Assembly: GCA_965226885.1 (NCBI GenBank)
Contig: CBDDEL010000017.1
Span: 64,001 to 128,000, forward strand
DNA length: 64,000 bases
Source of the DNA: Opitutales bacterium
Lineage (GTDB): Bacteria; Verrucomicrobiota; Verrucomicrobiia; Opitutales; UBA2987
Direction: 5' to 3'
Positions 4,573 through 33,071 of this stretch are shown here, piece by piece. The position numbers and the translations under genes were made by a program. The notes under the pieces are model-generated. The model searched no databases and was not told the origin of the DNA. It saw only the letters and a program-made list of their open reading frames with translations. The number at the start of each line of letters is the position of its first letter. The stretch's first letter is position 1.

Positions 4573-4576
4573 TTAG

Positions 4577-6143
4577 CCCGGATATTTCGTAAAAAAAGTA
4601 TCGTTGATATGCTTAACTGCTGATATACAGCAGGATAGATCAATAATTAAAGCAATATCAGCGATGACAAAAGGTAAACAATTAAAGCTACAGTTGACAA
4701 GGGTAAAAGGCCGCCGTGTGCGGGTTGATTTCAAGGGCGGAGAGGTTACTTCGGATGCCGGACTGCTTTTGATCCGGGAAGTGGATCGGCAGTTGGGCTT
4801 GACCGAACGAGCGGCCCGACAGTTAGTGGACAAACGGCAGAAGGGCAAAGTACGCCATGAGGTATTGGGGATGCTGCGGCAGCGCGTTTACGGGCTGGTG
4901 GCGGGCTATGAGGATTTGAACGTCTTTGATACCCTGCGCCACGATCCATTGTTGCAAACGGTAACGGGGCGCATTGAAACGTTGGCCAGCGCGCCGACTG
5001 TGTGTCGTTTTGAAAACGGGCAGGATCGGCGGGCGGCCTTTGCGGTAAACGAGCTGTTGGTCGAACAGTTCATGGGCTCCTTTGCCGAGGAACCCGAAGA
5101 GATCATCCTGGACTTTGACGCCACCGACAATCCGGTGCACGGGCTCCAGGAGGGACGTTTTTTCCACGGTTATTATGATCATTACTGTTTTCTGCCGCTA
5201 TATGTTTTTTGCGGTGATCAGCTGCTGGTGGCCTACCTGCGGCCGAGCAAGATCGATGCCAGCAAGCATGCCGGGGCCATCCTCAAATTGCTGGTTAAAC
5301 GGATGCGCCAAAGCTGGCCCCGTACGCGGATTATTTGGCGCGCCGACAGTGGATTTTGTCGAGACCGGATACTCTCTTGGTGCGACCGCAACGAAGTTAG
5401 TTACATCGTGGGGATGGCTCGCAATGCACGCTTGCAGCAAGACGCCCAGCAGTTGCAAAAGCAGGCCAAAGAATGGTTCGAACTAAGGGGTAAAAAACAA
5501 CGGTTATTCCAGGACTTCGTCTATGCTGTCGATTCGTGGCGATGGCTGCGGTTGGTCATCCATAAAGCCGAACACACCGCACAGGGGTCCAACCCGCGCT
5601 TCGTGGTGACGAACCTGCCGGGCGATCCCCAGGAGCTTTACGACAAGGTATACTGTGGCCGCGGTGAAATGGAGAACCGAATCAAGGAACAGATGCAATT
5701 GTTCAGCGAGCGCACCAGCGCCCATCAATGGTGGGCCAATCAGTGGCGATTGCTCTTGTCGGCGCTGGCCTACACCTTGATGGAAGCCATGCGCCGGTTA
5801 GCCTTAAAAGGGACGAAGTGGGCGCGGGCCCAATGGCACACCCTGCGGCTCAAATTAATCAAGATCGGAGCGGTCATCGTGCGCAACACCCGAACGATTC
5901 ACTTTCACCTAAGTGAGAGTTATCCTTGGGCCAGTCTTTTCAACCATGCGGCCCGCCGATTGGTGCCAACCTAAAGGGTGCATTGGTGCTGCCCCCGGCA
6001 CTACCGAACCAATGGGGGAAAGGGGGCAGTGTCTCTACACCCTGAAAAACACCTAAAAATCAAGACGATCTGCTCAAAATACAAAGAAATCCATCTCCAA
6101 TAGCAATAACGAGCCAAACTTTACCCTTCATGAAATATCCGGG
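4577..6143 (+). mobile_element. IS1380-family element copy 3, tandem to copy 2
   Basis: Same IRs; TTAG at 4573-4576 (shared with copy 2) and 6144-6147; 1567 bp. Confidence 0.95.
4664..5974 (+). CDS. IS1380-family DDE transposase (open frame)
   Basis: Uninterrupted ORF; ATG start MTKGKQLKL preferred over the upstream TTG at 4604; IS1380 motifs as in copy 1. Confidence 0.92.
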   Translation: MTKGKQLKLQLTRVKGRRVRVDFKGGEVTSDAGLLLIREVDRQLGLTERAARQLVDKRQKGKVRHEVLGMLRQRVYGLVAGYEDLNVFDTLRHDPLLQTVTGRIETLASAPTVCRFENGQDRRAAFAVNELLVEQFMGSFAEEPEEIILDFDATDNPVHGLQEGRFFHGYYDHYCFLPLYVFCGDQLLVAYLRPSKIDASKHAGAILKLLVKRMRQSWPRTRIIWRADSGFCRDRILSWCDRNEVSYIVGMARNARLQQDAQQLQKQAKEWFELRGKKQRLFQDFVYAVDSWRWLRLVIHKAEHTAQGSNPRFVVTNLPGDPQELYDKVYCGRGEMENRIKEQMQLFSERTSAHQWWANQWRLLLSALAYTLMEAMRRLALKGTKWARAQWHTLRLKLIKIGAVIVRNTRTIHFHLSESYPWASLFNHAARRLVPT

Positions 6144-12927: not shown

Positions 12928-13956
12928 ATGGTATTTGAAATTCTGCCTCAGGTAACCAAGGGGTGGATGCAAATGGGCATTTCCATCGGTGTCATCTTGC
13001 TGGTCCTTGGGTTTTTCTTTTTCCGGATGGTGTCCATGCCGGGGAAAACCTACTCCGGTACTTTGCCTAAGCTGGACGGGGAGGAGGCGGAAACGGCCCG
13101 AAATCTCCAACGCCATGTTGGCAAGCTGGCTCACGAAATTGGAGAGCGGAATTACGTTGCTTACGCAGGTTTGCTAGCCGCCGCCGAATACCTGGAAAAG
13201 ACCCTGGGGGAATTGGGGTATAAAGTTCGGTCACAAACCTTCGACATTCCCGCGGGCGTGGTGAGGAACCTCGAGGTCGAACTTCCCGGCAAGGCGCGGC
13301 CCGAAGAAATTATCGTTATCGGCGGGCACTACGATTCTGTTGTCGGCTCCCCGGGGGCGGACGATAATGCCACCGGCTCAGCCGCAGTGATTGAGCTGGC
13401 TCGAATCTTTGCTCAAAAAAGGCTGCAAAAAACCATTCGCTTTGTCCTCTTTGTCAACGAGGAAGATCCCCATTTTCAAACGCCGACTATGGGTAGTCTG
13501 GTTTACGCCAATGAGCTTCACGAGCGGGGAAATAATGTAGTGGCGATGTTCTCCCTTGAGTCCATCGGGTATTTTTCCGGCCAGGCCGATTCGCAGAATT
13601 ATCCGTTCCCTTTCAGCCTTCTTTATCCGGACAAGGGTAATTTTATAGGTTTTGTGGGCAACCTAGGGTCCCGCGGCCTCGTTCGCCGATCCTTGGATAT
13701 TTTCCGCAACAACTGCATTTTCCCATCAGAGGGGCTCGCAGCTTTGGAAATAATACCGGGCATCGGCTGGTCGGACCACTGGCCGTTTTGGAAATTCGGC
13801 TACAAGGCATTAATGGTCACCGATACGGCCCCGTTTCGAAATCCCCATTATCATCTCGCAACAGACACCATCGAGACCATTGACTATGCCTCCATGGCCC
13901 GGATTGTGCACGGCCTTGAGGCCGTCATATCCAATTTGGCCGGAGAAACAGAATAG
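12928..13956 (+). CDS. M28-family metallopeptidase, N-terminal membrane anchor
   Basis: GGHYDS, GADDNATG, NEE, SDH, YHLATD. Confidence 0.9.
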   Translation: MVFEILPQVTKGWMQMGISIGVILLVLGFFFFRMVSMPGKTYSGTLPKLDGEEAETARNLQRHVGKLAHEIGERNYVAYAGLLAAAEYLEKTLGELGYKVRSQTFDIPAGVVRNLEVELPGKARPEEIIVIGGHYDSVVGSPGADDNATGSAAVIELARIFAQKRLQKTIRFVLFVNEEDPHFQTPTMGSLVYANELHERGNNVVAMFSLESIGYFSGQADSQNYPFPFSLLYPDKGNFIGFVGNLGSRGLVRRSLDIFRNNCIFPSEGLAALEIIPGIGWSDHWPFWKFGYKALMVTDTAPFRNPHYHLATDTIETIDYASMARIVHGLEAVISNLAGETE

Positions 13957-14016
13957 GTCGGCTGCTTTGCCATTGAAGTCAGCCAGTGAGCTATTGTTGA
14001 TCTGTCCAAAAGGGCT

Positions 14017-14583
14017 CTACCTGACGACTATCAGATCGCAGCGGCGATCGTTGGCCATTTGGTCGGACGAACCTTCCTCTATCGCATCGAAGTCGCCTTT
14101 TGAATTGGTTTCCATACGATCTTCTGCCACGCCTAGGGCTGCCAAGTACTGTTTTACATTGTTCGCTCTGCGATCGCCCAGGGCCAGATTGTATTCGGTG
14201 GTTCCCCGCCAGTCGCAATGGCCCTCGATGAGAAGTTTGTCGTTGGGATTGTCGAGCAAGTGGGCTGCGGCGCCCTGAAGTATTTCACGCTGGCCGGGTA
14301 AAATGGAGACTAGGTCATAATCAAAAAATACCGGGGACAGTAAATCCGGCAATTGATTGTCCACCGACATAAAGTCGGAATCCGGTGCCCTGACATTCAA
14401 TAATCCCGATTCTCCGGTATAGGCATCGGTCACAATCGTATAATCGATTCTTTCACCGCCGGGCCCTAAAATGGTGTCCTGAGGTGTGGGGTCGGGGTTT
14501 TTTTTGCCGCACCCAGCCAGTGCCAGCGCCAGTATTAGAGGAATCAGAGCCAGTAAAAGATATTTTCGGCCTTTCATAAGCAT
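14017..14583 (-). CDS. pal: OmpA-domain peptidoglycan-associated lipoprotein (Pal-like)
   Basis: Lipobox LAGC; FFDYD, GHCDWRG, YNLALGDRRA, NDRR. Confidence 0.82.
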   Translation of the reverse strand: MLMKGRKYLLLALIPLILALALAGCGKKNPDPTPQDTILGPGGERIDYTIVTDAYTGESGLLNVRAPDSDFMSVDNQLPDLLSPVFFDYDLVSILPGQREILQGAAAHLLDNPNDKLLIEGHCDWRGTTEYNLALGDRRANNVKQYLAALGVAEDRMETNSKGDFDAIEEGSSDQMANDRRCDLIVVR

Positions 14584-14641
14584 AAGTAGTATGTGTTTTT
14601 CAGTTTGAATTGGAACTTTTTATTGATGGGAACGTAAATTT

Positions 14642-15295
14642 TTATGGACGCCCCGGCGTGTCGATCAATCCTTGCTCAATGGCAAACCGGGTGAGCCCGG
14701 CGACATCGTGCAAATCAAGTTTCTTCATCAGGTTGGTGCGATGGTTTTCGGCTGTTTTCACACTGATGTTGAGCTTGCTGGCGACTTCTTTTGTGCTGTG
14801 GCTTTCGGCAATGAGCTGTAGAATTTCCCGCTCGCGGGTGGTCAACAATTCCAGAACCGGATTTTGCGAAGAAGGGTTGGCCACCGCTTCACGCAAGTGG
14901 CGGGCCACATCCGGGCCAAAATAACTACCTCCATTGGCGACCGCCTGGATTCCATTTTTAAGCTCAGACAGAGGCGCAGATTTTTCCACAAAACCGTGGG
15001 CTCCGGCTTGCAGCAGCTCTCGAATCAAAGAGGTGTTCTGGTATCCAGAAAATACCAGCACCCTGGTTTTTTTAAGAGACTTGGAAAACCTGCGCAAAAC
15101 TTCCGTACCGTTAAGGCCGGGCAGCATGACATCGAGAATGACAAAGTCCGGCTTCAATTCGATGCAGAGATTGTAAGCGGCCTGTCCGTCACCCGATTCG
15201 GCGACGACATCAAAATCGGGCTGTGAGGAGATAATTTCAGCAATCATCTCCCGAACCGCAGTTTGATCTTCAATTATAACAACTCTTTTTATCAT
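14642..15295 (-). CDS. NarL/FixJ-family response regulator (REC + LuxR HTH); no kinase adjacent
   Basis: [26 protein letters not shown]...[17 protein letters not shown]. Confidence 0.93.
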
Positions 15296-18379: not shown

Positions 18380-19381
18380 ATGAATTTGCGGAATGAAGGA
18401 AAAATTCTGGTTACGGGCGGGGCCGGTTTTATCGGGAGCGCATTGGTTTGGGCTCTCAATAAGCGGGGAATTGAGGACATTATTATTGCCGATTATTTGG
18501 GGAGCGATGAAAAATGGAAAAATCTGGTTCCTTTGCGCTTCGAACATTATCTGGAAGCAGACGAGTTGCTTGAGAACCTGAAAAGAAAAGAAAATTCTTT
18601 CTTGGGAGATTTGAGCACCGTTTTTCACCTTGGGGCCTGTTCCAGCACGACAGAAACGGACGCTTCCTATCTGGCGAATAACAATTACGAATATACCCGG
18701 TTTCTGGCTGAATGGGCGCTTTCCAGAGGAATCCGTTTTATTTATGCTTCCTCAGCCGCCACTTACGGTGATGGCGGCCAAGGTATGGATGACAAAGATA
18801 AGGACCTCGCCCGCCTGAGACCGCTCAATATGTATGGATATTCCAAACACATGTTCGACCTCTACGCTCAAAGGCACAATCTATTGGAGCAAATTGTAGG
18901 GCTTAAATATTTCAATGTCTTCGGTCCCAATGAAAACCATAAGGGAAATATGCGCAGTCTGGTCCACAAAGCTTTTGAACAAATTCGTGATTACGGGGCC
19001 GTTAAATTATTCAAAAGCTATCATCCCGACTACCCTGACGGCGAACAAAAGCGGGATTTTCTCTATGTCAAAGACACCGTGGAGATGACCCTTTTTCTGG
19101 CTGAAAATGAAAAAGCGTCCGGCCTCTACAACATCGGCAGCGGACAGGCGCACACCTGGATTGAATTGGTCGAACCGATTTTCCATGCCATGAATAAGCC
19201 GGTAAATATCGAATTTATCGACATGCCAGAGGCCATCCGGTCTCAATACCAATATTTCACGGAGGCCGATACCTCAAAACTTCGTCATAGCGGTTATGGA
19301 GATTCAGTCATGTCACTGGCGGAAGCCGTCACCGACTATGTGAAAAACTATCTCCTCGACCATAAAACCCTGGGCGCCTGA
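18380..19381 (+). CDS. hldD: ADP-L-glycero-D-manno-heptose 6-epimerase
   Basis: VTGGAGFIGS, HLGACSSTTE, ASSAATYG, PLNMYGYSK, YFNVFGPNE.HKG.M. Confidence 0.93.
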   Translation: MNLRNEGKILVTGGAGFIGSALVWALNKRGIEDIIIADYLGSDEKWKNLVPLRFEHYLEADELLENLKRKENSFLGDLSTVFHLGACSSTTETDASYLANNNYEYTRFLAEWALSRGIRFIYASSAATYGDGGQGMDDKDKDLARLRPLNMYGYSKHMFDLYAQRHNLLEQIVGLKYFNVFGPNENHKGNMRSLVHKAFEQIRDYGAVKLFKSYHPDYPDGEQKRDFLYVKDTVEMTLFLAENEKASGLYNIGSGQAHTWIELVEPIFHAMNKPVNIEFIDMPEAIRSQYQYFTEADTSKLRHSGYGDSVMSLAEAVTDYVKNYLLDHKTLGA

Positions 19382-19418
19382 GGGCCCCCCTTCCCTTTTA
19401 AACGCGAGGGATAAGGTA

Positions 19419-20096
19419 TTATTCGAGCGGGAAAAGTTCCAGAATCTCTTCCACTTTCCACGAATTGGGCCGCTCGTGGCTGGCCCTGATTGCGGTCACC
19501 TGCTCGGCGGATACCTGGTCGGAATTATTACCCCAGTCGGGATTGGTACGAACATAGGTGGCAATGGCGGCTATCTGCTCATCGTCCAACAAAGAGGAAA
19601 AAGGCGTCATAATGCTGTTATAGGCATTTCCGACAACTTCAATTTGGCCAGACATGCCGTTCAACATAATGGCCACCATGCGGTCCGGTTCCCCACGCAC
19701 CCAGCGCGAACCGACAAGCGGCGGAAAGGCTCCGGGTAGCCCCGTGCCGTCGGCTTGGTGGCAGGCGATGCAATTGCGTTTGTAAAGCTTTTCCCCATCA
19801 ATTGCCACTGGCTGCAAATCCCCGGAACCTACATCAAACGAGGGTGGCTTACCCTCGGGATCGAAAACAAAAGGATGGTAGCCGCCGGCGTATTTACTGA
19901 GGTATATGCTCCCGAAGACAAAGATGAATGTGAACAAAGCTGTCCCCAAAATAGGCATGGAAAGGACACCGTTGCCATTACTCTCGGATTTCGAGAATGT
20001 CCGGGCATGGGTTTCCAGAAGAGCGTCGTCCGGCATCCGGCTTTTTTCAGCCAGATTCATGGATGGGTCGGAATCGTTAGATTTTGAGTGGCTCAT
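19419..20096 (-). CDS. Membrane-anchored monoheme class I cytochrome c
   Basis: One TM; CIACHQADGTG..GAFPPL; distal Met (IMTPF). Confidence 0.9.
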   Translation of the reverse strand: MSHSKSNDSDPSMNLAEKSRMPDDALLETHARTFSKSESNGNGVLSMPILGTALFTFIFVFGSIYLSKYAGGYHPFVFDPEGKPPSFDVGSGDLQPVAIDGEKLYKRNCIACHQADGTGLPGAFPPLVGSRWVRGEPDRMVAIMLNGMSGQIEVVGNAYNSIMTPFSSLLDDEQIAAIATYVRTNPDWGNNSDQVSAEQVTAIRASHERPNSWKVEEILELFPLE

Positions 20097-20107
20097 TAAT
20101 GGATCGA

Positions 20108-20794
20108 TTAATTCTGCGGTTCTTCCTGTAAACGGGCTTCGGGCAGGCTGTAATCGAGTTTCAGGCTCTGCAAATAGGCAACCAGAGCCTTTGCCCGGCG
20201 GGTGGGCACAATTTCGTATCCTTCGGCGGGGCCAAAGCCCTCCTGAAATTCAATGGCGTTGGGCGAAGCTTCCCCATTTGAGGCGATTTTGCGTTTTTGG
20301 TATAAAAAAGCATAGGGAGGCATGTTGGAACCGGACTTTTCGGATTGCGGGTTATACAAATGGGCGTGTAGGCGGTTCACCGAGCCGCTGCGTTGGCCGA
20401 AGTCGGCCAAATCCGGCCCGTTGCGCGAAGATCCCAGCAACACCCTCTTTTGCTGTATGTAATCGCGGGGCACTGATTGGCGGTTTCCCCAGCCGCGCTC
20501 GAAATCGGTTCCGAAGCCTTTTCGGCGAACCTGCTGGGTGTGGCAATAGACGCAGCCCAGGCCAACGTATTGGGCTTTCCCCTGTTGGGCCAGACCGACG
20601 GATTCCTCGGGGTATCGAGGCTCGTCTTTTTGAGGCGTCTCGATTCTCGCGGTATTGGAAACCGGGTCGATGGCGTAATATTCCGACATGGGTTGAAGCT
20701 CGCCCAATTGCTTTTGGCCCTGCCAGAGAATTCCAGCCCAGGAAAGAGCCAGGGTGGCGAATAATCCGCAAAATATTAAAGGCAGGCTTTTCAT
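20108..20794 (-). CDS. ccoO: cbb3-type oxidase subunit II-like monoheme cytochrome (CcoO/FixO)
   Basis: GCVYCHTQQVR, LGSSRNGPDLA, HLYNP...SNMPPY. Confidence 0.88.
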   Translation of the reverse strand: MKSLPLIFCGLFATLALSWAGILWQGQKQLGELQPMSEYYAIDPVSNTARIETPQKDEPRYPEESVGLAQQGKAQYVGLGCVYCHTQQVRRKGFGTDFERGWGNRQSVPRDYIQQKRVLLGSSRNGPDLADFGQRSGSVNRLHAHLYNPQSEKSGSNMPPYAFLYQKRKIASNGEASPNAIEFQEGFGPAEGYEIVPTRRAKALVAYLQSLKLDYSLPEARLQEEPQN

Positions 20795-20804
20795 TCTATC
20801 TCAA

Positions 20805-22283
20805 TCATGAAGCGGCGGTTTCGGGAAGCAGGTTGTTGTCGGCCGTGAAGAAGGCTTTTTTACAAGAAAGGGCCGCCAGTGCAAACATCCAGAGAATGTT
20901 GGCCGCAAACGCCAGATGCCCAACGCCTATTAACAAGATCGATACCGTGCGGGCATGAAGCCAGGGCAGTGTATTGCGCACAATTTGCAGGAAATCCAAT
21001 TGAACCGGGTTTCCATAGCTATCCAGTGTGGCCAAATTCATCTGCGAGCCTTGAATCCAGCCGCCCACGTAGAGGGCAACGAGCATGAGGGTTATTCCGC
21101 CAGCGGCGCACCAAAAATGGCATTGGATCAACTTTGCCGAAGGCCAGGGGCAATTGAGAAGGCGTGGCATCATGAAATAAATCGCCCCGAACATGGTCAT
21201 GGTGAAAAAGGCATAAATCATATGATGGGTCTGCCCCTGCACCATGAGGGTGAATTGGGCAACTTCACTGACCGATCGCAGGGACATGGCGCAGCCGATC
21301 AGACTAGCCAAGGTGTAGGAAATCGTTCCGAAGACCACGAACCGCAAGGCGGGGCTGGCCGCAACCTGATTCCATCGGCCGGAAACGGTGAGGTGGTGGT
21401 TAACGGCGGCGATGGCGATGGGGAGAACCATAGCCATGGATGCCACGATCCCGACCGTGACCAGCCATGAGGGCACGGGCCCACCAGCCAGGTGGCGTAT
21501 TCCGCCCCACCCTACTATGAGGGCCAGGGACCAAAATCCGAGGGAAGCCAGGTAGTAACTGTGGATGGGCCGGCCCAGAATTTTGGGTATGAGGTAATAG
21601 GCGGCGCCCAGCCCGGCGGGAATCAGCCAGAGACCCAAAAGGTTGTGCATGTACCACCAATTGGCCATAGCCTGGACCACTCCCCGGGCCGGAGCATAGA
21701 CGAGAAAGATTTGCGCCGTTACATAAATCCAGGGAAACCAGAACAGGGCGCCCAGCACATACAACTGGGAAATAAAAACGGGTCCGGGCCGGCCATAGAA
21801 GACTACGAGTGTTCCCCATATTCCCATGATAATGCTGGAAAAGGCCAGCAGAGGGACCGCGTAGGCGGGCATTTCGAGCCATTCAATCGAGGTCATATCC
21901 CCGATAATAATCCCGCCGATCCCGATGGTGACGGCCACGTTCCAGAACATGGCCCCGATCAAAAGCATCCCGGCTTGGGGAACAGGCCGCCGGCAAAGTC
22001 GGGCCAAAATCCATAATCCAACCCCAAAAAAGGCGTTGCCGCCCCAGCCATAAATCATGGAGTTGAGGTAGGCCGCCCAGACACGCCCGTAGGTGAGCCA
22101 TTCGCAACCGGCCAAGAATCCGGGATGGGTCGATTTTACGGAGGCCATGAGAGCGAAAGTTGTGGCCGTCAAGAGCCAGAGAATGGCTGAAAGCAAGAGT
22201 AGCAATACGGGCCATCTCAACGAGCGGTCGATCTCGTTCAACCTGGATTGTGCCGTCACTGGCTCTGTGGATGGTGTGTTCAC
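20805..22283 (-). CDS. cbb3-type oxidase subunit I-like protein (CcoN homolog) with degenerate metal ligands
   Basis: Collinear with CcoN (TYGR, E..E, WWYMHN, YYLIPK..GRPI.SY.L, LRF, HFW), but heme/CuB histidines and the cross-linked Tyr are partly substituted. Confidence 0.85.
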   Translation of the reverse strand: MNTPSTEPVTAQSRLNEIDRSLRWPVLLLLLSAILWLLTATTFALMASVKSTHPGFLAGCEWLTYGRVWAAYLNSMIYGWGGNAFFGVGLWILARLCRRPVPQAGMLLIGAMFWNVAVTIGIGGIIIGDMTSIEWLEMPAYAVPLLAFSSIIMGIWGTLVVFYGRPGPVFISQLYVLGALFWFPWIYVTAQIFLVYAPARGVVQAMANWWYMHNLLGLWLIPAGLGAAYYLIPKILGRPIHSYYLASLGFWSLALIVGWGGIRHLAGGPVPSWLVTVGIVASMAMVLPIAIAAVNHHLTVSGRWNQVAASPALRFVVFGTISYTLASLIGCAMSLRSVSEVAQFTLMVQGQTHHMIYAFFTMTMFGAIYFMMPRLLNCPWPSAKLIQCHFWCAAGGITLMLVALYVGGWIQGSQMNLATLDSYGNPVQLDFLQIVRNTLPWLHARTVSILLIGVGHLAFAANILWMFALAALSCKKAFFTADNNLLPETAAS

Positions 22284-22315
22284 GAAATTGCTTGAATTTA
22301 AAAATGAATGGGCGA

Positions 22316-22636
22316 TTACGGGCTGCCGTCTACAGGTGGTTCCTTGGACAGATCTTTTAGGGTCAGTTCCATGGCGCGCTTGATGGGGATGCGAACAATC
22401 CCGGCGGACTGATCAATCCACCCATAGGTGGTGCGGATTTCTTCGTGCCAACTGCGGACTTCCATCAAAGTGTTGTCTCTCTTTTGCGAGACCCGATCGC
22501 CGACCGGCGCGGGGCGGTTGACGGCAACCATAATGATGACCACCAGCAAAAAGGAGAGAATCAGCCCGAAAATGCTGAGGGCGGATAGGCTCAAGGAGAG
22601 CCCGCCCGGTTCCGAAGTTGGAGGGTGTTCACTCAT
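22316..22636 (-). CDS. actG: ActG-like single-TM subunit of alternative complex III
   Basis: TM segment plus C-terminal YGWIDQSAGIVRIPIKRAMEL; directly after actF. Confidence 0.7.
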   Translation of the reverse strand: MSEHPPTSEPGGLSLSLSALSIFGLILSFLLVVIIMVAVNRPAPVGDRVSQKRDNTLMEVRSWHEEIRTTYGWIDQSAGIVRIPIKRAMELTLKDLSKEPPVDGSP

Positions 22637-23927
22637 GGGCGTTGATGGATTCGAGGATACGCGGATCCCGGATGGGAATGGGTTTCACCTTGCGGGAACT
22701 GATGATAAAAGACCAAACACAGATGCTCCCCACACCGAGCCAGGTTAAAAAGTCAACCCAGTTAGGAATGAAGGGCCTGACGACGAAACCGAGAATATTT
22801 TCATCGCTGGGAATCTGGCCCGGCAAAATATTCCAATACATGTCGAGGCCGTGAAAAGCGAGTATCCAGATGGCGATAAAAAGTACCCGGAGGCCGAATT
22901 TATTGTGGTACCACAACAGGTAGATGAAGGGGAAAAGGAAGTGGGCGAAAACCAATCCCATACTGACCCACCACCAACTGTTTTTGGTACCGTCGAAATT
23001 CATTTCCCGAATGTTGTACCAAAAAGTCTCCTCGGGGATATTGGTGTTATAAATGAGGAAATACTGGCAAAAGCTGATGTAGGCCCAGAATACCGTGAAA
23101 GCCAGCATGAGGCAGGCCAACAAGTAGGAATGGTAGCGGTTGTAGATGCCTTTGAGGTAGCCGCGGGTTCCCAGTATCCAGCAGATTACCATGGTCCCGG
23201 CCAGGCCGGCTCTCATGCTCTCGGCAAAAAACCAAACTCCGTACATGGTCGAGAACCAGTGGTACTCGAGGGACTTGAACCAATCGACGGCTGCGAAGGT
23301 GGCGCAGAAGGCGCACAGGTAAATGCCGACGGCGGAAACATTGTGGGCCAGGCGCGCCCATTTGGGATCGCCATCCTTTTCCATAGAAAAAGAACAACGC
23401 CGCAATATACCTGCCAACCCGATCCAGGCGGCAAAATAAAAAATGGTCCGGAAGGTGAAAAAGCCCACATTGAGAAAGCTGGATTTTTTTTGAAGTAAAA
23501 CATCGCCGCTGACCGGTTCGCCACTGGGAAGTAAATTACCCGGATCCATCCAGACCCAGGGCACGGCATTGTTTTCGGGGTGGAAAAAACTCAGTGCCGC
23601 CACCGGTAGAAAGATTAAGGCAATCCATTTGAAACCGGACAGGGCGTGCTCGATCTGCCGCCTGACGATGATCGACCAGCCGGCGTCGAAAACGTATAAT
23701 ATCATGAGCAGGAAGAGCATTCCGACGCCCATGGAAAGCCAGTAGGAGAGCCCGATCATCCAGCCCAGGAAGGGACGTGAATCACCGGTTCGCCAACCCA
23801 TCATCAAGAGGATGAAGGCACCGGCGAGGCTGACTAAACCGAGGATCAAGGCTTTTGTCGCCAGATCGTTATTTTTACCGGAGGAAGCCACCGCTTCCAG
23901 GGTTGGGTTGGCCGCTTCAGCGCTCAT
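22629..23927 (-). CDS. actF: Alternative complex III subunit ActF
   Basis: Polytopic; AVDWFKSLEYHWFSTMYG, FWAYISFCQYFLIYNTNIPEET, PIRDPR. Confidence 0.9.
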   Translation of the reverse strand: MSAEAANPTLEAVASSGKNNDLATKALILGLVSLAGAFILLMMGWRTGDSRPFLGWMIGLSYWLSMGVGMLFLLMILYVFDAGWSIIVRRQIEHALSGFKWIALIFLPVAALSFFHPENNAVPWVWMDPGNLLPSGEPVSGDVLLQKKSSFLNVGFFTFRTIFYFAAWIGLAGILRRCSFSMEKDGDPKWARLAHNVSAVGIYLCAFCATFAAVDWFKSLEYHWFSTMYGVWFFAESMRAGLAGTMVICWILGTRGYLKGIYNRYHSYLLACLMLAFTVFWAYISFCQYFLIYNTNIPEETFWYNIREMNFDGTKNSWWWVSMGLVFAHFLFPFIYLLWYHNKFGLRVLFIAIWILAFHGLDMYWNILPGQIPSDENILGFVVRPFIPNWVDFLTWLGVGSICVWSFIISSRKVKPIPIRDPRILESINAHE

Positions 23928-24532
23928 AGTCCTAAATCCCCCCTATGTTCGGCCGGCACATCGGCGAGTCTCGAATTTTGCGCGCGCTGCAATGCTCTCA
24001 AGTAGGCGATAACAGCCCAACGCTCGGCGGGCCTCAGCTTTGCCCCATAAGGTCCCATATTATTTTTGCCCTTGGTTATGGTATTAAAAATCTCCCCTTC
24101 GGGCATGTCGCGAAATCGCTGGTTGTGGTAGGTCGGGGTGGCCACCATGCCGTATTTTTTGGTGATGCCGTTGCCATCTCCGCTGGCACCGTGGCATACG
24201 GCGCAAAAAATAGTAAATTTTTCCTGCCCCAGTTTCATTAAACCGGCATCGATGGACAGGGGGAATCCTCGTCCGAAATCCTCGTCGATCTTTCCGGTGA
24301 CGTAGTATTCGTTTTCGTGAAAGGAGCTGAATGAGACTGTTCCGGGCACCGCAGGGCGGTCTGCGCGCCCGTCGGCAAACATATCGCTCTCCGCCTGGGG
24401 TTTGTATTTTTCCTGCCGGTCCATGTCTGGAAACACTTCCAGTGGAGGCTTGCTCGAACGCGATCCCCTAAACCCTGTAAAGGAGAGGGTCGTGACGACC
24501 AGAAATATCAAGAAGGCAATAAAGTAACGCAT
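23924..24532 (-). CDS. actE: Alternative complex III monoheme subunit ActE
   Basis: DMDRQEKYKPQ, FADGRADRP.VPGTV, CAVCHG, ERWAVIAYLRALQ. Confidence 0.9.
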   Translation of the reverse strand: MRYFIAFLIFLVVTTLSFTGFRGSRSSKPPLEVFPDMDRQEKYKPQAESDMFADGRADRPAVPGTVSFSSFHENEYYVTGKIDEDFGRGFPLSIDAGLMKLGQEKFTIFCAVCHGASGDGNGITKKYGMVATPTYHNQRFRDMPEGEIFNTITKGKNNMGPYGAKLRPAERWAVIAYLRALQRAQNSRLADVPAEHRGDLGL

Positions 24533-24537
24533 ATTAA

Positions 24538-25068
24538 TTATTCCTTCAATTCTACTACTTCGAGGCTCTTCAGGCCTTCCAGAAATTTGCGTGTTTCCTC
24601 CAGGTCGAATTTTTCATCCTGGGCTTCGAGGAGGATGAGAAACTGGTCGTCGGTAATGCCGGGCCATTTTTTAAAGTCCATCACCGGGTGGTGGTGGCGA
24701 GGGAGCCGGTTGGTGATAAACATCCCGAAGAAGGCCCCGAAGGAGGCCAGCAGAATAGTCATTTCATAAGCCACAGGAAAGGGAAAAATGGGGCTAAATA
24801 AGGGTTTCCCCCCGACCACCAGGGGAAAGTCGAACTCACCCATATACCAGGCGATAAACATTCCGGTAATAAACCCGGTGACGCCTCCTATCAAAGAAAA
24901 TAGAGGCACTTTGGAGCGTTCCAGGCCCATGGCCCCTTCCAGTCCGTGCACGGGAAATGGAGAATAGACATCCCAATGGCGGAAGCCGGCCTCGCAAATT
25001 TCCTCCGCCGCCTTGTAGAGGTTGTGGGTGTTGCCGAAAGTGGCGATCAATCCGAAAGTTTTGCTCAT
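24538..25068 (-). CDS. actD: Alternative complex III subunit ActD (DUF3341)
   Basis: [21 protein letters not shown], two TMs. Confidence 0.9.
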
Positions 25069-26498
25069 TGAGTGAGTTCCGGTTCGTGATGATTCCCGTA
25101 GGGATCGGCCTGGGGGGTCACGTGTTTAATTTCGGCAATGGCCATGAGGGGCAGAAAGCGGATGAAGAGCAGGAATAAAAAGGAGAAGAAACCAAAAGTC
25201 CCGATGAAGGTAAAAATGTCCACCACGGTGGGGGAGAAGTAATCCCAGTTGGCCGGCATATATTCATTGGCCAAGGTGGTCACGACGATGACAAAGCGCT
25301 CGAACCACATGCCGATATTGACAAAAATGGAAACGATCCAGACCAGCGCCGTGTTTTCCCGAATCCAGCGGAACCAGAATAGTTGAGGCGTGATGACATT
25401 GCATGAAATCATAATCAGGTAGGCCCACCAATAGGGACCGAAGGCGCGGTTGATGAAGGCGAATCCTTCATAGGGGTTGGCCCCGTACCAAGAGATGAAA
25501 AACTCCATGGCGTAGCCGTAGCCGACCATGCTGCCGGTGGCCAAGGTGACTTTACACATGCAGTCGATATGGTATTGCGTAACGAGGTCGTGCAAACCGT
25601 AAATCGCCCTCAAGGGTAGTATAAGCGTCAAAACCATTCCGAAACCGGAAAAAATGGCGCCAGCGACAAAGTAAGGGGGAAATATGGTGGTATGCCAGCC
25701 CGGCAGGTTGGCCACCGCGAAGTCGAAGGAGATGATGGTGTGGACCGAAAGTACCAAGGGAGTGCTCAATCCCGCCAGTAATAGATATGCCATCTCGTAA
25801 TTGGTCCAGTGGCGGCAGGACCCGCGCCAACCCATGGCTAGAATACCGTAAAAGTATTTGCGCCAGGTCTTTGTGGCCCGGTCCCGCAAAGTGGCCAAAT
25901 CGGGTACCATGCCCATATACCAGAATAATATCGAAACCGTAAAATAGGTTGAGACGGCAAAAACGTCCCACTCCAGTGGGCTGCGGAAGTTAGGCCAGAT
26001 AGATTGCGAATTGGGCAGGGGAAAGAGCCACCAGGAAAACCAGATTCGACCCATGTGGAAGAGAGGGAAGATGCCCGCGCACATAACCGCGAAAATCGTC
26101 ATGGCTTCAGCTGTGCGGTTGATGGAGGTGCGCCACTTCTGTTTCAACAGGCAAAGAATGGCCGAGATAAGGGTGCCGGCATGGCCGATGCCGATCCAAA
26201 AGACGAAATTAACAATGGCCCAACCCCAATAAACCGGCCCTCCCAAACCCCATACGCCGACCCCCGTGGCAACCAAGTATAATAGCCCAAGGCCCGTAAA
26301 TGAAGCCACGAATCCAGCCACCAAAAAGCAAACCCACCACCAATTGGGCGTTTTTTCCTCCACGATCCGGCAGACTTTTTCCGTGATCCAATGGAAATCG
26401 CGGTTGTTTTCGACCAGCGGCCGACGCGGCATATGGGTTTGCCTGACCTCGTCCAGAACAACCGGCCTGACAATGGGAATTTCTTCTGTATATGCCAT
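25065..26498 (-). CDS. actC: Alternative complex III quinol-binding subunit ActC (NrfD/PsrC family)
   Basis: [61 protein letters not shown]. Confidence 0.95.
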
Positions 26499-26525
26499 AT
26501 TCTTCTACGTTCCAGACGTTAAAAT

Positions 26526-29500
26526 TTAATGATGACTGCCGTTTCCATGTTCCGTGTCCTCGCCGTGTGCGGCACCGTGCGGGTTGAGTTTTTCATACTC
26601 CATACGGCTCAGGGGCATAGACTCATAATCCGGCATGAGCGGGTTGGGGTTGCGCAGCCGGGCCAGGTAAGTCGTCCGCGGGCGGGTGTTCAAATAGCCT
26701 AACATGCCGTAATTCAAATCGGAATTTTTGATTTTCGAGACCTCCGAATCGGCATCGGCGACATCGCCGAAAACAATGGCCCCGGTGGGACATACTTGCT
26801 GGCAGGCAGTCTTGATGGCGCCTTCCCGGACTTTTACGTCGTCGGAATCCCGCGCCGCCACCTTGGCTTTGATCACCTCGACATCAATGCGCTGCTGGCA
26901 GTAGGTGCATTTCTCCATCACCCCGCGCATGCGAATGGTGACTTCGGGATTTTTTTGCAGGCTCTTGATTTCGGGTTTTCCGGCCGGCCCCAGCGGTCCT
27001 TCGTAAAAATGGTCGATTTCGCGCTTGTTCCAGTCGAAAAAGTTGAAACGGCGAACTTTGTAGGGGCAATTGTTGGCGCAATAGCGGGTACCCACGCAAC
27101 GGTTGTAGGCCATTACGTTGAGGCCCTGAGAGTCATGCACGGTGGCATTGACCGGGCAGACCTGTTCGCATGGCGCCATCTCGCAATGCATGCAGGGTAT
27201 CGGGGCCACGGAAACCTGCGGATTGTCCGGCACATGCTGTTTATTTACCTCGACATCGCCGCTGGAATAATAGCGGTCGAGGCGAATCCAGTGCATTTCC
27301 CGCCCGCGGGCCACCTGGTCCTGGCCAACGATGGGGATATTGTTCTCGCTCTGGCAGGCGACCACGCAGGCGCTGCACCCGGTGCAGACATTGAGGTCGA
27401 TGGACATGCCCCATTGCTGCGCGCCGCCGAATTTGGGAGTAAAATAAAGAGAGTTGCCGCGGGGTTGGGTTACGACCTGCTCTTGCAGCGATTTATCTTT
27501 GGCGCTGCCCAGAATGGGGGGCGAATGGGATTCCATGCCCAGTTTTTCCACAAAATGGGGTTCCTTTTGGAAATCCCCCACATTTGCTTCCCTGATGATG
27601 GCCCGCCCTTCCATGGACCAGTGTTCCTGGGTATTGGCCAGATTATGAGTAGTCCCGGCCAGTTCCAGCCGAGCGCCCCGGATGATTCCGCCCGATTGCG
27701 AGGAAAATAACGGATAGGCGCTGAAACCGACGTTGTCCCCTACCCGTCCGGATTTTGTGCGCCCATAGCCGGTTGTCAGGGCGACGGTATAATCGGCCAG
27801 GCCGGGCTGGACATTGATGGGGCCTGTTATGGTCGTTCCGTTGATGGAAAGCGTGCCCACCGGGGCGACTTGCCGGCCCATTTTAAAATCGTTAAACCTT
27901 TTGGCTGAAACTTGCGCCAGTTTGAGAAACCGGGAAACCGGGGAGCGCGGGGTGTTGGGCTCCCAGCCCAAATCCCGGGCCAGTTGCGGACTGATCGAAA
28001 TGACATTATCCCAGGTGATCTTGGTCATGGGATCGGGACATTCCTGCAGCCAGCCATTGTTGCTGTAACGCCCATCCAGCACTTTGGGGTCGGCCGTAAT
28101 GCGAACTTCCAGGTCGTCTGCGGAAAAAGGCCTGGAGGGCGGGATCATCCTGGCAACATCTTTTTGCAAAGCGCCCACATCCAGGGCAACCTTTTTCCGG
28201 GCATAGCCTGAATTTTCGAGTAGACCATCGCTCAGGAATCGTTCAAAAGCTCGATCATTATCGAGTTTGCCAGTGATGGCGGCAATCGTTTCGCGCACCA
28301 AAATGTAGGGATCGGTTTCCTCCAAACCGGCCAGGCGAGCCAGTATGGCAATTTCCTGAAAACCGTCGAAGAGGGGAAGGATCATCGGCTGCACCGGCAG
28401 TATAACGCCGTCCCAGGCGCGCCCGTCACCCCAGGATTCCAGATAATGGGCGGCGGCGATATGCCCTTGTGAAAGTGCGGAAGTCTCATCCTCATAATAA
28501 CCGAAGCGGATGACTTCATCCACCGCTCCTTGCAAATCGGCCCAATGAAGGTCGCCGGGGGCATTGTAGGCTGGATTTCCGCCGAGGATAAAAAGAGTTT
28601 CCACCCGGCCGGCTTGAATAGCCTCGGCCAGGTCTTGAATGGTCACGCCCTCCTTTTCCGGAATTTCCAGGTAATCCACAGTTTTCCCGTTGGCGGATAA
28701 AAGATCGTTGGCAAAATAGGCCAGTTGATGAACTTCCACCGGCTGGTCCTCCCCTGCCACGATGACGGCTTCCCCCCGGTGTTCGAGGAGATCGGCCACA
28801 CATTCCCTGATCCAGGCGGAATCCACTTCCAGACCGGCCGCTTTTCGTCGCAGAAGAGCCGCCAAGGATGCATTTTGGTCCATCTTTTCGAGCAATTCGG
28901 CAACTGTCAGAGCGGCCAGAGCAGGAATATGACTGGCCGGTAAACGGAGGCGGTGATCGGCCATGGTTCCTGTGATGCTGTAATGGCTCTCGGCCATATA
29001 AAGGCGGCTCATTTTTTCGGCTGCGGCAGGCTCGTGTACCCTTCGACGGTCTGAAAAATCCCGAGCTTGTTGCAAAAGGCCCGGCCCGCTATTTAAAAAG
29101 TCCGCATCAAGGGATAATATTCGACGCGCATTCTTGAAATTGTAACGGGGCCGCAGTCTTTTCCCCAAAATCCGGGCCAAAGCCGACTCGGCATTATTCT
29201 GCTCGGTCGCATCGTATTCCGCCCATATGCTCCGCGGAAATCTTTCCCGAAGGGCTTTGACGAGGCGTTCACGGGTTGGTGAGGTGCTTCCCTCGGCCAG
29301 AATGGCCAGTCCCTGCCCTTGTGTGGGGCGGTATTTTTCACCGATCGCATCAAGCCATGCTTCTACCTCTGCGCGGTTCAGTTCCCGCGATCTCTTTTTG
29401 CTCGTTGCCGACCTGTCCGGATCATACAGATCGAGAATAGAGGCCTGGGCCTGAAGATTGGTCGATCCGCCATAGGGACTGTAGGCAGGATTGCCCTCAA

Positions 29501-29879
29501 TCTTGGTGGGGCGATTCTGATGCGTCTTGACCACCAATGGGATGTTGTCCTTGGCTGACGGCAGGGAGGTGGAAAAATAAACCGGAACCCCCGGAACTCC
29601 ATTTTCAGGCTGTTTGGAGTAGGGTAAAATATGCTGTTCGGGCCTGCGGCAACCTGCCATGCCGGCCCCGGCGAAAGCAAAGGAGGCAGCCATGATCTTG
29701 AGGAAATGCCTACGGTTGAAGCCCTCTATTTCGGAGGCCCCGGCCGGGAATTCGCGTTCCACCCAGTCGCGGAATTCAGCCGATTCCGCCAGCTCGTCGA
29801 GGCTTTTCCAATAATGAGGACCACTGCGGTGTTTTTCCGCGGTTTCCGATGGCTGTTTTTGTTGGGTTGGGAGAATCAT
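26526..29879 (-). CDS. actB: Alternative complex III subunit ActB (molybdopterin-fold + Fe-S domains)
   Basis: YWKSLDEL..REFP, Tat motif NRRHFLK, AGC; Fe-S motifs CTGCSACVVAC, CMHCEMAPCEQVCP, CVGTRYCANNCP, CTYC, CQQVCP; start set at the ATGA overlap with the actA stop. Confidence 0.93.
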   Translation of the reverse strand: MILPTQQKQPSETAEKHRSGPHYWKSLDELAESAEFRDWVEREFPAGASEIEGFNRRHFLKIMAASFAFAGAGMAGCRRPEQHILPYSKQPENGVPGVPVYFSTSLPSAKDNIPLVVKTHQNRPTKIEGNPAYSPYGGSTNLQAQASILDLYDPDRSATSKKRSRELNRAEVEAWLDAIGEKYRPTQGQGLAILAEGSTSPTRERLVKALRERFPRSIWAEYDATEQNNAESALARILGKRLRPRYNFKNARRILSLDADFLNSGPGLLQQARDFSDRRRVHEPAAAEKMSRLYMAESHYSITGTMADHRLRLPASHIPALAALTVAELLEKMDQNASLAALLRRKAAGLEVDSAWIRECVADLLEHRGEAVIVAGEDQPVEVHQLAYFANDLLSANGKTVDYLEIPEKEGVTIQDLAEAIQAGRVETLFILGGNPAYNAPGDLHWADLQGAVDEVIRFGYYEDETSALSQGHIAAAHYLESWGDGRAWDGVILPVQPMILPLFDGFQEIAILARLAGLEETDPYILVRETIAAITGKLDNDRAFERFLSDGLLENSGYARKKVALDVGALQKDVARMIPPSRPFSADDLEVRITADPKVLDGRYSNNGWLQECPDPMTKITWDNVISISPQLARDLGWEPNTPRSPVSRFLKLAQVSAKRFNDFKMGRQVAPVGTLSINGTTITGPINVQPGLADYTVALTTGYGRTKSGRVGDNVGFSAYPLFSSQSGGIIRGARLELAGTTHNLANTQEHWSMEGRAIIREANVGDFQKEPHFVEKLGMESHSPPILGSAKDKSLQEQVVTQPRGNSLYFTPKFGGAQQWGMSIDLNVCTGCSACVVACQSENNIPIVGQDQVARGREMHWIRLDRYYSSGDVEVNKQHVPDNPQVSVAPIPCMHCEMAPCEQVCPVNATVHDSQGLNVMAYNRCVGTRYCANNCPYKVRRFNFFDWNKREIDHFYEGPLGPAGKPEIKSLQKNPEVTIRMRGVMEKCTYCQQRIDVEVIKAKVAARDSDDVKVREGAIKTACQQVCPTGAIVFGDVADADSEVSKIKNSDLNYGMLGYLNTRPRTTYLARLRNPNPLMPDYESMPLSRMEYEKLNPHGAAHGEDTEHGNGSHH

Positions 29880-30529
29880 CGATGGCATCTGGAACAGCTC
29901 AAAGGTGGGTCGATTTTCCATGCTTCGACAATTTTTTGACCCATTTCGAGTTGTTCCCGGTGGTTGGGGGCTTTCCAGTCCAAATCGTAAACTTTGTCGA
30001 GGGGGCGTACTTTTTCTTCGGGATTGCGGTGGCAGGTAAGACAAAAATCCATGCTCAGTGATTCTGCGTGCTCGACTACTTTCATTTTATTGATCTGCCC
30101 GTGGCACTCCACACAGCTGACACCCCGATTGACGTGCGCTGAGTGGTCAAAATAAACGTAATCCGGCAATTTGTGTACGCGAATCCAGGGAACGGGTTCC
30201 CCCGATTGGTAGCTTTCGCGGATGGGCGCCAGCTTGGGGCTTTCCGGCAGAATCTGGTTGTGACAATTCATGCAAGTGGCCGCATCCGGCACATTGGCGT
30301 GCTCCGAGCGGTCCACATAGGTATGACAATAGCGGCAATCCAGGCCAAGTTGACCGACATGCAGGCTATGGTCATAAGCCACTGGTTGGGTAGGTTGATA
30401 GCCGACGCGGGTGTATTTGGGCGAAAAAAAGTAGGTCACTCCGGCGGTTCCGACTCCGCTCAAAAGAAACAAGGCGATGATCACATTGATCGGTACCTGA
30501 TTGGACCATTTAGGGAAAATATTCGCCAT
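29876..30529 (-). CDS. actA: Alternative complex III pentaheme cytochrome ActA
   Basis: N-terminal TM; five CxxCH (CRYCH, CMNCH, CVECH, CLTCH, CSRCH); PDYVYFDHSAH. Confidence 0.95.
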   Translation of the reverse strand: MANIFPKWSNQVPINVIIALFLLSGVGTAGVTYFFSPKYTRVGYQPTQPVAYDHSLHVGQLGLDCRYCHTYVDRSEHANVPDAATCMNCHNQILPESPKLAPIRESYQSGEPVPWIRVHKLPDYVYFDHSAHVNRGVSCVECHGQINKMKVVEHAESLSMDFCLTCHRNPEEKVRPLDKVYDLDWKAPNHREQLEMGQKIVEAWKIDPPLSCSRCHR

Positions 30530-31946: not shown

Positions 31947-33068
31947 ATGAACAAATCGATCATCATTGCGTTAAGCCTTTTCGTAGCTCTTTTACTTTGG
32001 CTGGCATCCGGCCTTATTATAGGTAACGGGGGAAATATTGAAAACGGCTCCACGGAACCGACCGCCATGGATGAGGGCGAAAGCCCGCTCCAGAGTGTGC
32101 GAGTGCGGCGGCAGCGAGCCCAGTCGGTGGTCCGTGAGGTCATCATCCATGGGAAAACGGATGCCGCCCGCAAAGTTGAAATGAAGGCGGAAACGGCCGG
32201 GCGCGTCATCCTGGTGGGGTCGGAAAGGGGTGCCTTGGTGGAAAAAGGAGAATTAATCGCCAGAATAGAAATGCGCGATCGTGACAACCGGCTGGCTCAA
32301 TCGAAGGCCTTGTTAAAACAGCGGCGGCTCGAATACGAGGCTTCCCGGGAGCTGGCGGAAAAAGGCTACCAGGCAGAGACCAAGGTGGCCGAATCTTTCG
32401 CTGCCCTGCTACAGGTTGAAACCATTTCTATCGATATCGAAAAAACTCGCATCGCGGCCCCATTTGAAGGCGTTTTAGGAGAACGTTACATTGAAGAGGG
32501 CGATTATTTGAAGGATGGCGATCCGGTGGGGCTCCTCCTGGAACTGGATCCCTTGATTATCAAAGGAAAAGTCACCGAGCGCGAAATCGACGCGTTGAAA
32601 ATGGGCATGACGGGCAAGGCTGAATTGGCCTCAGGAGACATTGTGCAGGGTCGCCTTCGTTACATAGCGCCCTATTCAGATGAGGAAAGCCGTACCTATA
32701 GCGTTGAAATCGAGGTTTCCAACGCTGGTTCCCGCATACCCGCAGGATTAACCGGCCAGATGTATATCCCGGTGGAAACGATCAAGGCTCACTACCTATC
32801 TTCCGCAATGCTGTCCCTCAACGACCAGGGCGTGCTCGGCATCAAAATCGTCGATGAACAGGACACTGTTTTATTTGTCCCATCGAAACTGGTAAAGGCA
32901 GATGCCAATGGGGTCTGGCTTTCGGGATTGCCGGATGTTGCCAGGATTATCACCGTCGGCCAGGGTTTTGCCAGAGCCGGGGACCGCGTCCTGACCCAAC
33001 CGGACAAAGAGGAAGTTGTGCCCGTCGATGTTGAAGACCGGAGCCATGTTGGCCAGTTGCAGGAATAG
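31947..33068 (+). CDS. RND efflux periplasmic adaptor (MFP)
   Basis: N-terminal TM; AETAGRV, IAAPFEGV, SRTYSVEI, IITVGQ. Confidence 0.92.
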   Translation: MNKSIIIALSLFVALLLWLASGLIIGNGGNIENGSTEPTAMDEGESPLQSVRVRRQRAQSVVREVIIHGKTDAARKVEMKAETAGRVILVGSERGALVEKGELIARIEMRDRDNRLAQSKALLKQRRLEYEASRELAEKGYQAETKVAESFAALLQVETISIDIEKTRIAAPFEGVLGERYIEEGDYLKDGDPVGLLLELDPLIIKGKVTEREIDALKMGMTGKAELASGDIVQGRLRYIAPYSDEESRTYSVEIEVSNAGSRIPAGLTGQMYIPVETIKAHYLSSAMLSLNDQGVLGIKIVDEQDTVLFVPSKLVKADANGVWLSGLPDVARIITVGQGFARAGDRVLTQPDKEEVVPVDVEDRSHVGQLQE

Positions 33069-33071
33069 CCA

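Follow-up and report, generated by a model that had tools for sequence, protein, structure and literature searches.

A cbb3-like gene module at the end of an alternative complex III operon

The 64,000-nucleotide stretch analysed here, hereafter the window, comes from an Opitutales bacterium of the Verrucomicrobiota (GTDB lineage Verrucomicrobiia; Opitutales; UBA2987) and covers positions 64,001 to 128,000 of contig CBDDEL010000017.1 (assembly GCA_965226885.1, forward strand). Gene calling placed in it one tight series of minus-strand genes that runs from ActA of alternative complex III (ACIII) to a cytochrome c (Table 1). The ACIII part was recognized by its ActD signature, NrfD-type ActC, Fe-S ActB, multiheme ActA and monoheme ActE, all in order. 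Behind it stands the subject of this report, a module of three genes resembling ccoN, ccoO and ccoP of cbb3 oxidases; database sources name the CcoN-like genes 'cbb3-type cytochrome c oxidase subunit I'. The original prediction, made from the sequence of the window, had assigned the module to the ACIII operon and read it as a pseudo-oxidase, and the assignment held. It had also let the operon end convergently at hldD. The convergent neighbour is there; its match to the PF01370 epimerase family fits hldD but is not specific for it.

Table 1 Features of the ACIII operon and its flank in the window
Feature	Position	Strand	Basis
ActA, multiheme cytochrome c of ACIII	29876..30529	-	Pfam multiheme families (Cytochrome_C7 1.2e-13 and others); first in conserved act order
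ActB, Fe-S/molybdopterin-like ACIII subunit	26526..30044	-	4Fe-4S dicluster domains, residues 878-1001
ActC, NrfD-type ACIII membrane subunit	25065..26498	-	Pfam NrfD 5.3e-22
ActD	24538..25068	-	Pfam PF11821 ActD 1.7e-60
ActE, monoheme cytochrome c of ACIII	23924..24532	-	Pfam Cytochrome_CBB3/Cytochrom_C; between ActD and ActF
ActF, second large ACIII membrane subunit	22629..23927	-	Named from position and orthology
Small single-helix protein of 106 amino acids, ActG position	22316..22636	-	Conserved C-terminal YGWVD...VRIPIERAMELT-type motif
CcoN-like shell, cbb3 subunit I fold, 492 amino acids	20805..22283	-	Y72, V257, R263 and Q351 in place of four of the seven cofactor residues
CcoO-like monoheme cytochrome c subunit	20108..20794	-	Pfam FixO 1.6e-17
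CcoP-like monoheme cytochrome c with membrane anchor and a single heme domain	19419..20096	-	Pfam Cytochrom_C/Cytochrome_CBB3; weak TIGR00782 ccoP match
NAD-dependent epimerase	18380..19381	+	Pfam PF01370; convergent, closes the region

The CcoN-like protein keeps the fold of subunit I and lacks cofactor residues

The CcoN-like gene is an intact open reading frame, as the original prediction had held. Residues 26-448 of its product match Pfam COX1 (189 bits), and in a phmmer search against all Protein Data Bank chains the protein aligned near full length with solved CcoN chains (E values 2e-39 to 4e-31), to which it is 22-24% identical. An AlphaFold2 model reached a mean predicted local distance difference test score (pLDDT) of 92.3 and a predicted template modelling score of 0.92, and Foldseek superposed it on CcoN of 8smr and 3mk7 with template modelling scores (TM) of 0.86-0.91 and root-mean-square deviations (rmsd) of 1.8-2.0 Å. 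The COX1 match, the pLDDT and the TM to 3mk7_A and 8smr_E together identify the 12-helix COX1 fold.

The six histidines and the cross-linked Tyr251 that mark a catalytic CcoN are incomplete in this protein, and the same or worse was found in all five species of its genus. In the phmmer alignment with Pseudomonas stutzeri 3mk7_A, H60, Y251, H257 and H345 are replaced by Y72, V257, R263 and Q351, H207, H258 and H347 are retained as H213, H264 and H353, the ExxE pair is retained as E134/E137, and E323 is replaced by I329. Every residue call of the original prediction, which had aligned the protein by eye, thus proved right, and the alignment did not restore the six histidines and the tyrosine. 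The TIGR00780 equivalog score was 163 bits against a cut-off of 583. Judged by its sequence, the protein cannot be a canonical heme-copper oxidase. It does not qualify as a cytochrome c- or quinol-dependent nitric oxide reductase (cNOR or qNOR) either, which are marked by six histidines and FeB-binding glutamates: histidine ligands are missing, and cNOR structures are more distant (TM 0.78).

Two further features had been read as peculiar to this protein. H296, H297 and H354 had been called new histidines, but in an alignment of 121 sequences (the query and its 120 best homologs, 111 of them ligand-complete) they occur in 118, 120 and 109 members. They were rejected as replacement ligands, being ancestral residues of the family. 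The substitution at E323 is real; however, it is no part of the degeneration, since the position holds I in 70 of the 121 sequences and I, F, A, L, T, V or M, with no E among the residues listed, throughout this set, ligand-complete members included. The missing glutamate is, by this alignment, evidently a trait of the ACIII-linked subfamily. Working ACIII-linked CcoN, with its non-Glu residue at E323 and conserved NHH (296-297) and H354, may use a proton route different from that of classical cbb3.

Ligand erosion and purifying selection within the genus

The genome measures 5.48 Mb and is 96% complete, and four further species genomes are available from the genus. An intact CcoN ortholog without internal stops lies in the same operon in all five species, at 70-90% amino acid identity. 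The seven cofactor positions (P. stutzeri H60, H207, Y251, H257, H258, H345 and H347, in this order) read YHVRHQH in two species and YHTRHQH, YHTRHHH and GHVSNNQ in the others; four of the seven ligands are kept in one species, three in three and one in the last. These patterns indicate that ligand loss is older than the genus and that the remaining ligands are still eroding.

Ratios of nonsynonymous to synonymous substitution rates (dN/dS) were computed by the Nei-Gojobori method (NG86), leaving out ActB, whose mis-registered alignment gave dN above 2. In all ten within-genus pairs (dS 0.3-1.5) the ratio for CcoN was 0.13-0.18, compared with 0.02-0.04 for ActC, 0.04-0.10 for ActF, 0.06-0.21 for CcoO and 0.11-0.21 for the cytochrome c. 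Ligand-complete CcoN of three other genera gave 0.012-0.057 (five pairs with finite dS). Likewise, dN(CcoN)/dN(ActF) was about 0.6-1.2 in ligand-complete genera and 2-3.5 in three degenerate lineages. Constraint on the degenerate CcoN is therefore relaxed about threefold yet strong, and purifying selection holds. The comparison of orthologs beside act clusters, which had been proposed with the original prediction, thus showed substitutions that are neither private to this species nor neutral.

Cofactor residues and ccoS are lost together

The survey was widened to 56 loci, each taken from a different genome of the order or class; a first sample supplied 30 of them and a second 26. All seven residues are present in 34 loci (hereafter canonical or ligand-complete); the other 22 are degenerate, each with open frames free of internal stops. 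The order ActF-(small gene)-CcoN-CcoO-cytochrome c is kept in the 56 genomes, one contig of which has no upstream DNA; two counts of 30 loci each placed ActF upstream of CcoN in 29, the same contig end lacking it both times.

The two partner cytochromes remain intact. In the window CcoO has CVYCH and the Met of GSNMPPY, and the third subunit, with its one heme domain, has CIACH and the Met of SIMTPF, so that both carry the heme-c motif and the distal methionine that the original prediction had assigned to them. Across the survey the CxxCH of CcoO is kept in 56/56 loci and its distal Met in 34/34 canonical and 19/22 degenerate ones; for the cytochrome c the CxxCH is present in all 54 loci holding the gene, and the distal Met in 32/33 canonical and 20/21 degenerate loci.

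A different picture was obtained for the maturation gene ccoS. Searches with the family model PF03597 (CcoS) found a match in two ligand-complete genomes (G019 and G039), directly upstream of the ACIII-linked ccoN, and none in three genomes of the genus, namely the present one at 96% completeness, G004 and G001. With two CcoS proteins as tblastn queries, ccoS was located directly upstream of CcoN in 33/34 ligand-complete loci, the 34th being the contig without upstream DNA, but in only 1/22 degenerate loci; no ccoS was found by these queries in the five loci of the genus, the present one included, where the gap from the small gene to ccoN measures just 32 bases. In the ligand-complete loci (L009-L018, L020 and L049-L074; for example L038:13746-13871) the short ccoS, 63-91 amino acids long in the two examples extracted, lies between the small membrane gene and ccoN, and the maturation factor therefore belongs to the act-cco operon itself. 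The gene ccoG (TIGR02745) was informative only in G019, where it adjoins a CcoNO fusion of that genome. The loss of cofactor residues and the loss of ccoS thus go together, a pairing that speaks independently against assembly of the centre.

The sole degenerate locus with a recognizable ccoS frame (E 1.6e-15) is L021 (G020:C32), with the pattern FFSNYHY. Function may have been lost there only very recently, or the decay of ccoS may follow that of the ligands.

Recurrent loss in Verrucomicrobiota

A tree of the neighbouring ActF and CcoO proteins (56 rows, IQ-TREE quick mode, LG+C20) united this genus and a second genus of its family in one all-degenerate clade (support 99). Two degenerate genomes were nested in an otherwise canonical family of 17 genomes (support 100), one was sister to a canonical genome (support 95), and others lay elsewhere on the tree. 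Eight changes of state are needed, of which the well-supported branches force at least five; in the 30-row tree of the same proteins, taken alone, the starred branches force no more than one. We read the changes as losses because the regain of seven residues together with ccoS is implausible. Loss counts were not taken from a FastTree phylogeny of 188 CcoN sequences, which arranges the degenerate clades as a ladder that long branches may distort; there, no other degenerate lineage lies closer to the canonical clade than this genus (support 0.92).

Partial losses were also found among metagenomic proteins close to canonical ones, with the patterns HHTHHHH, HHSSHHH, HSYNHHH and HHSQHQQ. Nine distinct patterns retain three residues or more; eight of them have lost Y251 and seven H257, and each other position is lost in one to four, which indicates that the Tyr-CuB site is lost first. 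Among the 150 nearest 50%-identity cluster representatives, 130 were long enough to be scored (at least 430 amino acids): 126 were degenerate, four had all seven residues, and 124 had two or fewer. By source name, the degenerate representatives occur in metagenome-assembled genomes of Opitutales/Opitutae and Pedosphaera, and the basal canonical ones in Telmatocola and Ottowia/Alicycliphilus. What had looked like a single oddity in the window instead belongs to a loss that is widespread and has recurred. The residue patterns mark this genus as an early, transitional stage of a loss seen repeatedly in the ACIII-linked cbb3 modules of Verrucomicrobiota.

These data also bear on the possibility that ccoN is a young pseudogene in neutral decay whose frame happens to be uninterrupted. 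Decay of this kind could account for the stepwise erosion of ligands within the genus and for a CcoN that evolves 2-3.5 times faster relative to ActF than its ligand-complete orthologs do. However, it is hard to reconcile with intact frames in 5/5 species at dS up to about 1.5 and dN/dS of 0.13-0.18, with open frames in 22/22 degenerate loci, with the confident model (pLDDT 92) or with the 126 degenerate representatives among 130, which imply long persistence. We consider it the most improbable of the explanations weighed here.

Bulky residues in the cofactor pocket and no recurrent new site

The columns conserved at 80% or more in 132 degenerate sequences hold glycine, proline, tryptophan and aromatic residues and a few polar ones, and for all but one of them (A246) the consensus residue is the same in ligand-complete CcoN. 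Columns that canonical and outgroup sequences conserve and degenerate sequences have lost belong to the cofactor pocket; they include query positions 69, 72, 209, 213, 246, 257, 263, 264, 343, 351, 353, 355 and 449. In this genus the pocket glycines G355 and G449 have become M/W/F and I/L, and R69, conserved in canonical and outgroup proteins, has become W/Q/S. The residues that replace the ligands are heterogeneous, a deletion has removed the HH pair from 48 of 148 degenerate sequences, and no shared set of replacement residues and no new active site was found across these 148.

The original prediction had also offered a re-engineered metal site, and the protein could in principle still be an enzyme, for example with a Tyr72/His353 heme b and a non-copper centre (H213, H264, R263) that reduces O2, NO or another substrate. 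Three canonical ligands do survive in this species, tyrosine can ligate heme, the frame is under selection, and one study describes new nitric oxide reductase (NOR) families with altered active sites in the superfamily (PMC11214002). Such a site is nevertheless disfavoured because the ligands that are kept differ between species of the genus: Y72, R263, H264 and H353 have become G, S, N and Q in one member (L008), and Q351 is H in another (L007). The absence of a detectable ccoS, the loss of R69, the bulky residues in place of pocket glycines, the lack of a recurrent replacement set in 148 degenerate relatives and the low TIGR00780 score argue in the same direction. We regard an altered but working enzyme as improbable, if slightly less so than neutral decay.

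An A-type oxidase is encoded elsewhere in the genome

The original prediction had noted no second ccoN in the window, and the statement holds for the whole genome. The only other COX1 match, at 446 bits, is an A-type subunit I on contig C16, where a diheme cytochrome c, CoxII, CoxI, CoxIII, CoxIV and a CoxIII-like protein form a complete aa3 operon; the proposed genome-wide search for a canonical oxidase thus led to an A-type enzyme. Cytochrome bd was not found in the four genus genomes searched for it, this one included. An A-type COX1 above 410 bits is present in 22/22 genomes with a degenerate module. By comparison, the ACIII-linked CcoN is the only heme-copper oxidase in 4 of 12 canonical genomes, and in a fifth the only addition is a CcoNO fusion. 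This is the direction expected if the centre decays only where another oxidase covers its function, although kinship among the genomes makes a formal test unsafe.

Three observations on these A-type genes may be added. The aa3 operon (L047, G000:C16:720000-738000) is flanked by genes for a DDE transposase and an rve-type integrase (3963-5321 and 13936-14799 of that locus) and may lie on a mobile or recently moved segment. Its CoxI falls among A-type proteins of lower score (about 412-450 bits), a group that several relatives have as well. In G017, a relative with a ligand-complete ACIII-linked CcoN, an A-type COX1 match (C3:191441-192826) carries one internal TAG stop, which may be the reverse case, with the aa3 oxidase as the decaying one.

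The small single-helix protein and neighbouring genes

The small gene between ActF and CcoN overlaps the ActF stop by 8 bases. Its product matched no Pfam or NCBIfam family; it has same-position homologs in canonical and degenerate loci alike, always between ActF and (ccoS)-ccoN (rows L031 and L063 are omitted from the alignment), and its Atlas neighbours are unnamed Verrucomicrobiota/Planctomycetota clusters, one of them comprising 2827 members. An ActG-like or a CcoH-like subunit is a possible identity. ActF likewise gave no Pfam or NCBIfam match. For ActB, orthologs with 53-90% identity and full coverage take the same operon position in six related loci (L034, L035 and L037-L040). A scan of 19200-19600 found no promoter or terminator, and a look-up of RNA runs for 19419-26500 listed none. 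Upstream of the act operon, on the opposite strand (31947-36053, +), a membrane-fusion protein gene and a long gene for a transporter of the resistance-nodulation-division type were recognized by eye from their translations; they are unrelated to the CcoN finding.

A candidate scaffold for a heme-c relay on ACIII

We favour, with moderate confidence, the reading that the three genes behind ACIII encode a CcoN shell poor in cofactors that has been retained to scaffold a heme-c relay on ACIII. The CcoN-like protein would not be an O2 or NO reductase, because it has neither the Tyr-CuB site nor the proximal heme b3 ligand, lacks one of the axial ligands to the low-spin heme and has no CcoS to mature it; its probable role is that of a membrane scaffold, without catalysis, for the two c-type cytochromes. 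The module would descend from an ACIII-linked cbb3 oxidase whose catalytic centre fell out of use. The CuB/Tyr site and ccoS would have gone first and the heme ligands later, while the shell and the c-type cytochromes persisted. The shell would then serve as a membrane platform that anchors CcoO and the CcoP-like cytochrome c beside ACIII. Electrons could pass from ActA/ActE through CcoO and the cytochrome c to the separately encoded aa3 or to another periplasmic acceptor, and O2 reduction in this organism would be left to the aa3 oxidase. A role as scaffold or electron exit, which the original prediction had put forward, fits all the comparative data.

Several points weigh against this interpretation. 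The physical association of the module with ACIII is deduced from synteny. H213, H264 and H353 together with Y72 remain in this species, whose protein may therefore still bind one heme b or a metal. In three of the 22 degenerate loci the distal Met of CcoO is gone, and the relay role is perhaps not universal. The dN/dS values of the deeper pairs, which have dS above 1, are rough. Finally, the count of other oxidases on the canonical side covers 12 of the 34 genomes, those of the first sample.

The shell might alternatively be kept for a role other than a relay, as an assembly or stability subunit of ACIII or for ion translocation or the binding of quinone or lipid, with CcoO and the cytochrome c retained for separate reasons. 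Its place behind ACIII in every locus examined would suit such a role, as would the degenerate loci without the CcoO methionine and the conservation of E137 (of ExxE), R95, N115, N295, H389 and Q411 in at least 80% of degenerate sequences. However, A246 is the sole conserved column specific to degenerate proteins, the rest being conserved in canonical CcoN too. S240 and Y317 (P. stutzeri numbering), which we take to be part of the cbb3 proton pathway, are retained in just 8% and 27% of degenerate sequences. Moreover, both cytochromes retain their heme motifs at every locus, which ties their function to the shell. We hold a role of this kind to be unlikely, though well ahead of neutral decay or a re-engineered enzyme.

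A bolder form of the scaffold proposal would make the shell an obligatory structural adaptor of a new respiratory megacomplex, docking and wiring ACIII to aa3 or other periplasmic reductases. The 12-helix body and its two heme-c subunits would have been recruited to this task once the cbb3 centre was redundant, in five or more separate conversions within Verrucomicrobiota, each beginning with the loss of the CuB/Tyr site and ccoS. We offer it as a tentative idea, somewhat less doubtful than a non-relay role.

Relation to known systems

The module resembles cbb3 CcoNOP (P. stutzeri 3MK7/5DJQ, P. aeruginosa 8SMR) in the fold of subunit I (TM 0.86-0.91, rmsd about 2 Å), the FixO-type monoheme and heme-c partner subunits and the ExxE pair. 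It differs in the replacement of four of the seven cofactor residues, in a TIGR00780 score far under the cut-off and no ccoS found, in a third subunit with one heme domain instead of two, and in being joined to an act operon. To judge from the entry titles of 8smr, 6xkw and 9g83, cbb3 oxidases form supercomplexes with complex III.

Closer relatives are the ligand-complete ACIII-linked cbb3 modules of Opitutales and their relatives, by source name among others Coraliomargarita, Ruficoccus and Lentimonas, and also Telmatocola and Ottowia/Alicycliphilus, which have the same order ActF-small gene-(ccoS)-CcoN-CcoO-cytochrome c. Their CcoN is 49-57% identical to the query and shares NHH (296-297), H354 and the non-Glu residue at E323. 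Unlike the query, they keep all seven residues and a ccoS between the small gene and ccoN, at dN/dS of 0.012-0.057. The ligand-poor CcoN shells of other Verrucomicrobiota agree with the query in operon position, intact CcoO and cytochrome c, lack of ccoS and purifying selection, but they keep zero to two of the seven residues and have often lost the HH pair, whereas this genus keeps one to four. With three of seven kept, the query is a partial-loss member of these ligand-less ACIII-linked shells.

The association of ACIII with oxidases is itself established. According to PMC5928083, act clusters often precede oxidase genes and ACIII forms supercomplexes with caa3/aa3, and that paper and PMC8552683 describe an act cluster followed by oxidase genes for the ACIII-caa3/aa3 supercomplexes of Rhodothermus marinus and Flavobacterium johnsoniae. 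In those two the partner is a working A-type oxidase with direct electron hand-over, whereas here a C-type module without a working centre takes its place and aa3 is encoded elsewhere. ACIII and cbb3 genes lie together in Methylacidiphilum (PMC6688271), and CcoP of Neisseria gonorrhoeae provides an example of a cbb3 heme-c subunit that diverts electrons to another enzyme (PMC8552683).

Ligand-less ACIII-linked CcoN was not described in the full-text literature searched, older subscription papers and supplements lying beyond that search. PMC11214002 states that the active-site histidines are completely conserved in the heme-copper oxidase families except gNOR, the first to replace one; the ligand-less CcoN family is a large exception to the conservation stated there. 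To this family the present genus adds a transitional stage, an erosion series within one genus, the contrast in ccoS (33/34 against 1/22), a minimum number of independent losses and a link to A-type oxidases. The presence or absence of ccoS provides a simple genomic marker of working and dead modules. Surveys that deduce high-affinity microoxic respiration in Verrucomicrobiota from these genes would err on this genus and on the larger part of the family (126/130 nearest cluster representatives). The repeated conversion of an oxidase into a conserved non-catalytic subunit amounts to a natural experiment on what a supercomplex partner contributes apart from catalysis, and this genus supplies the intermediates.

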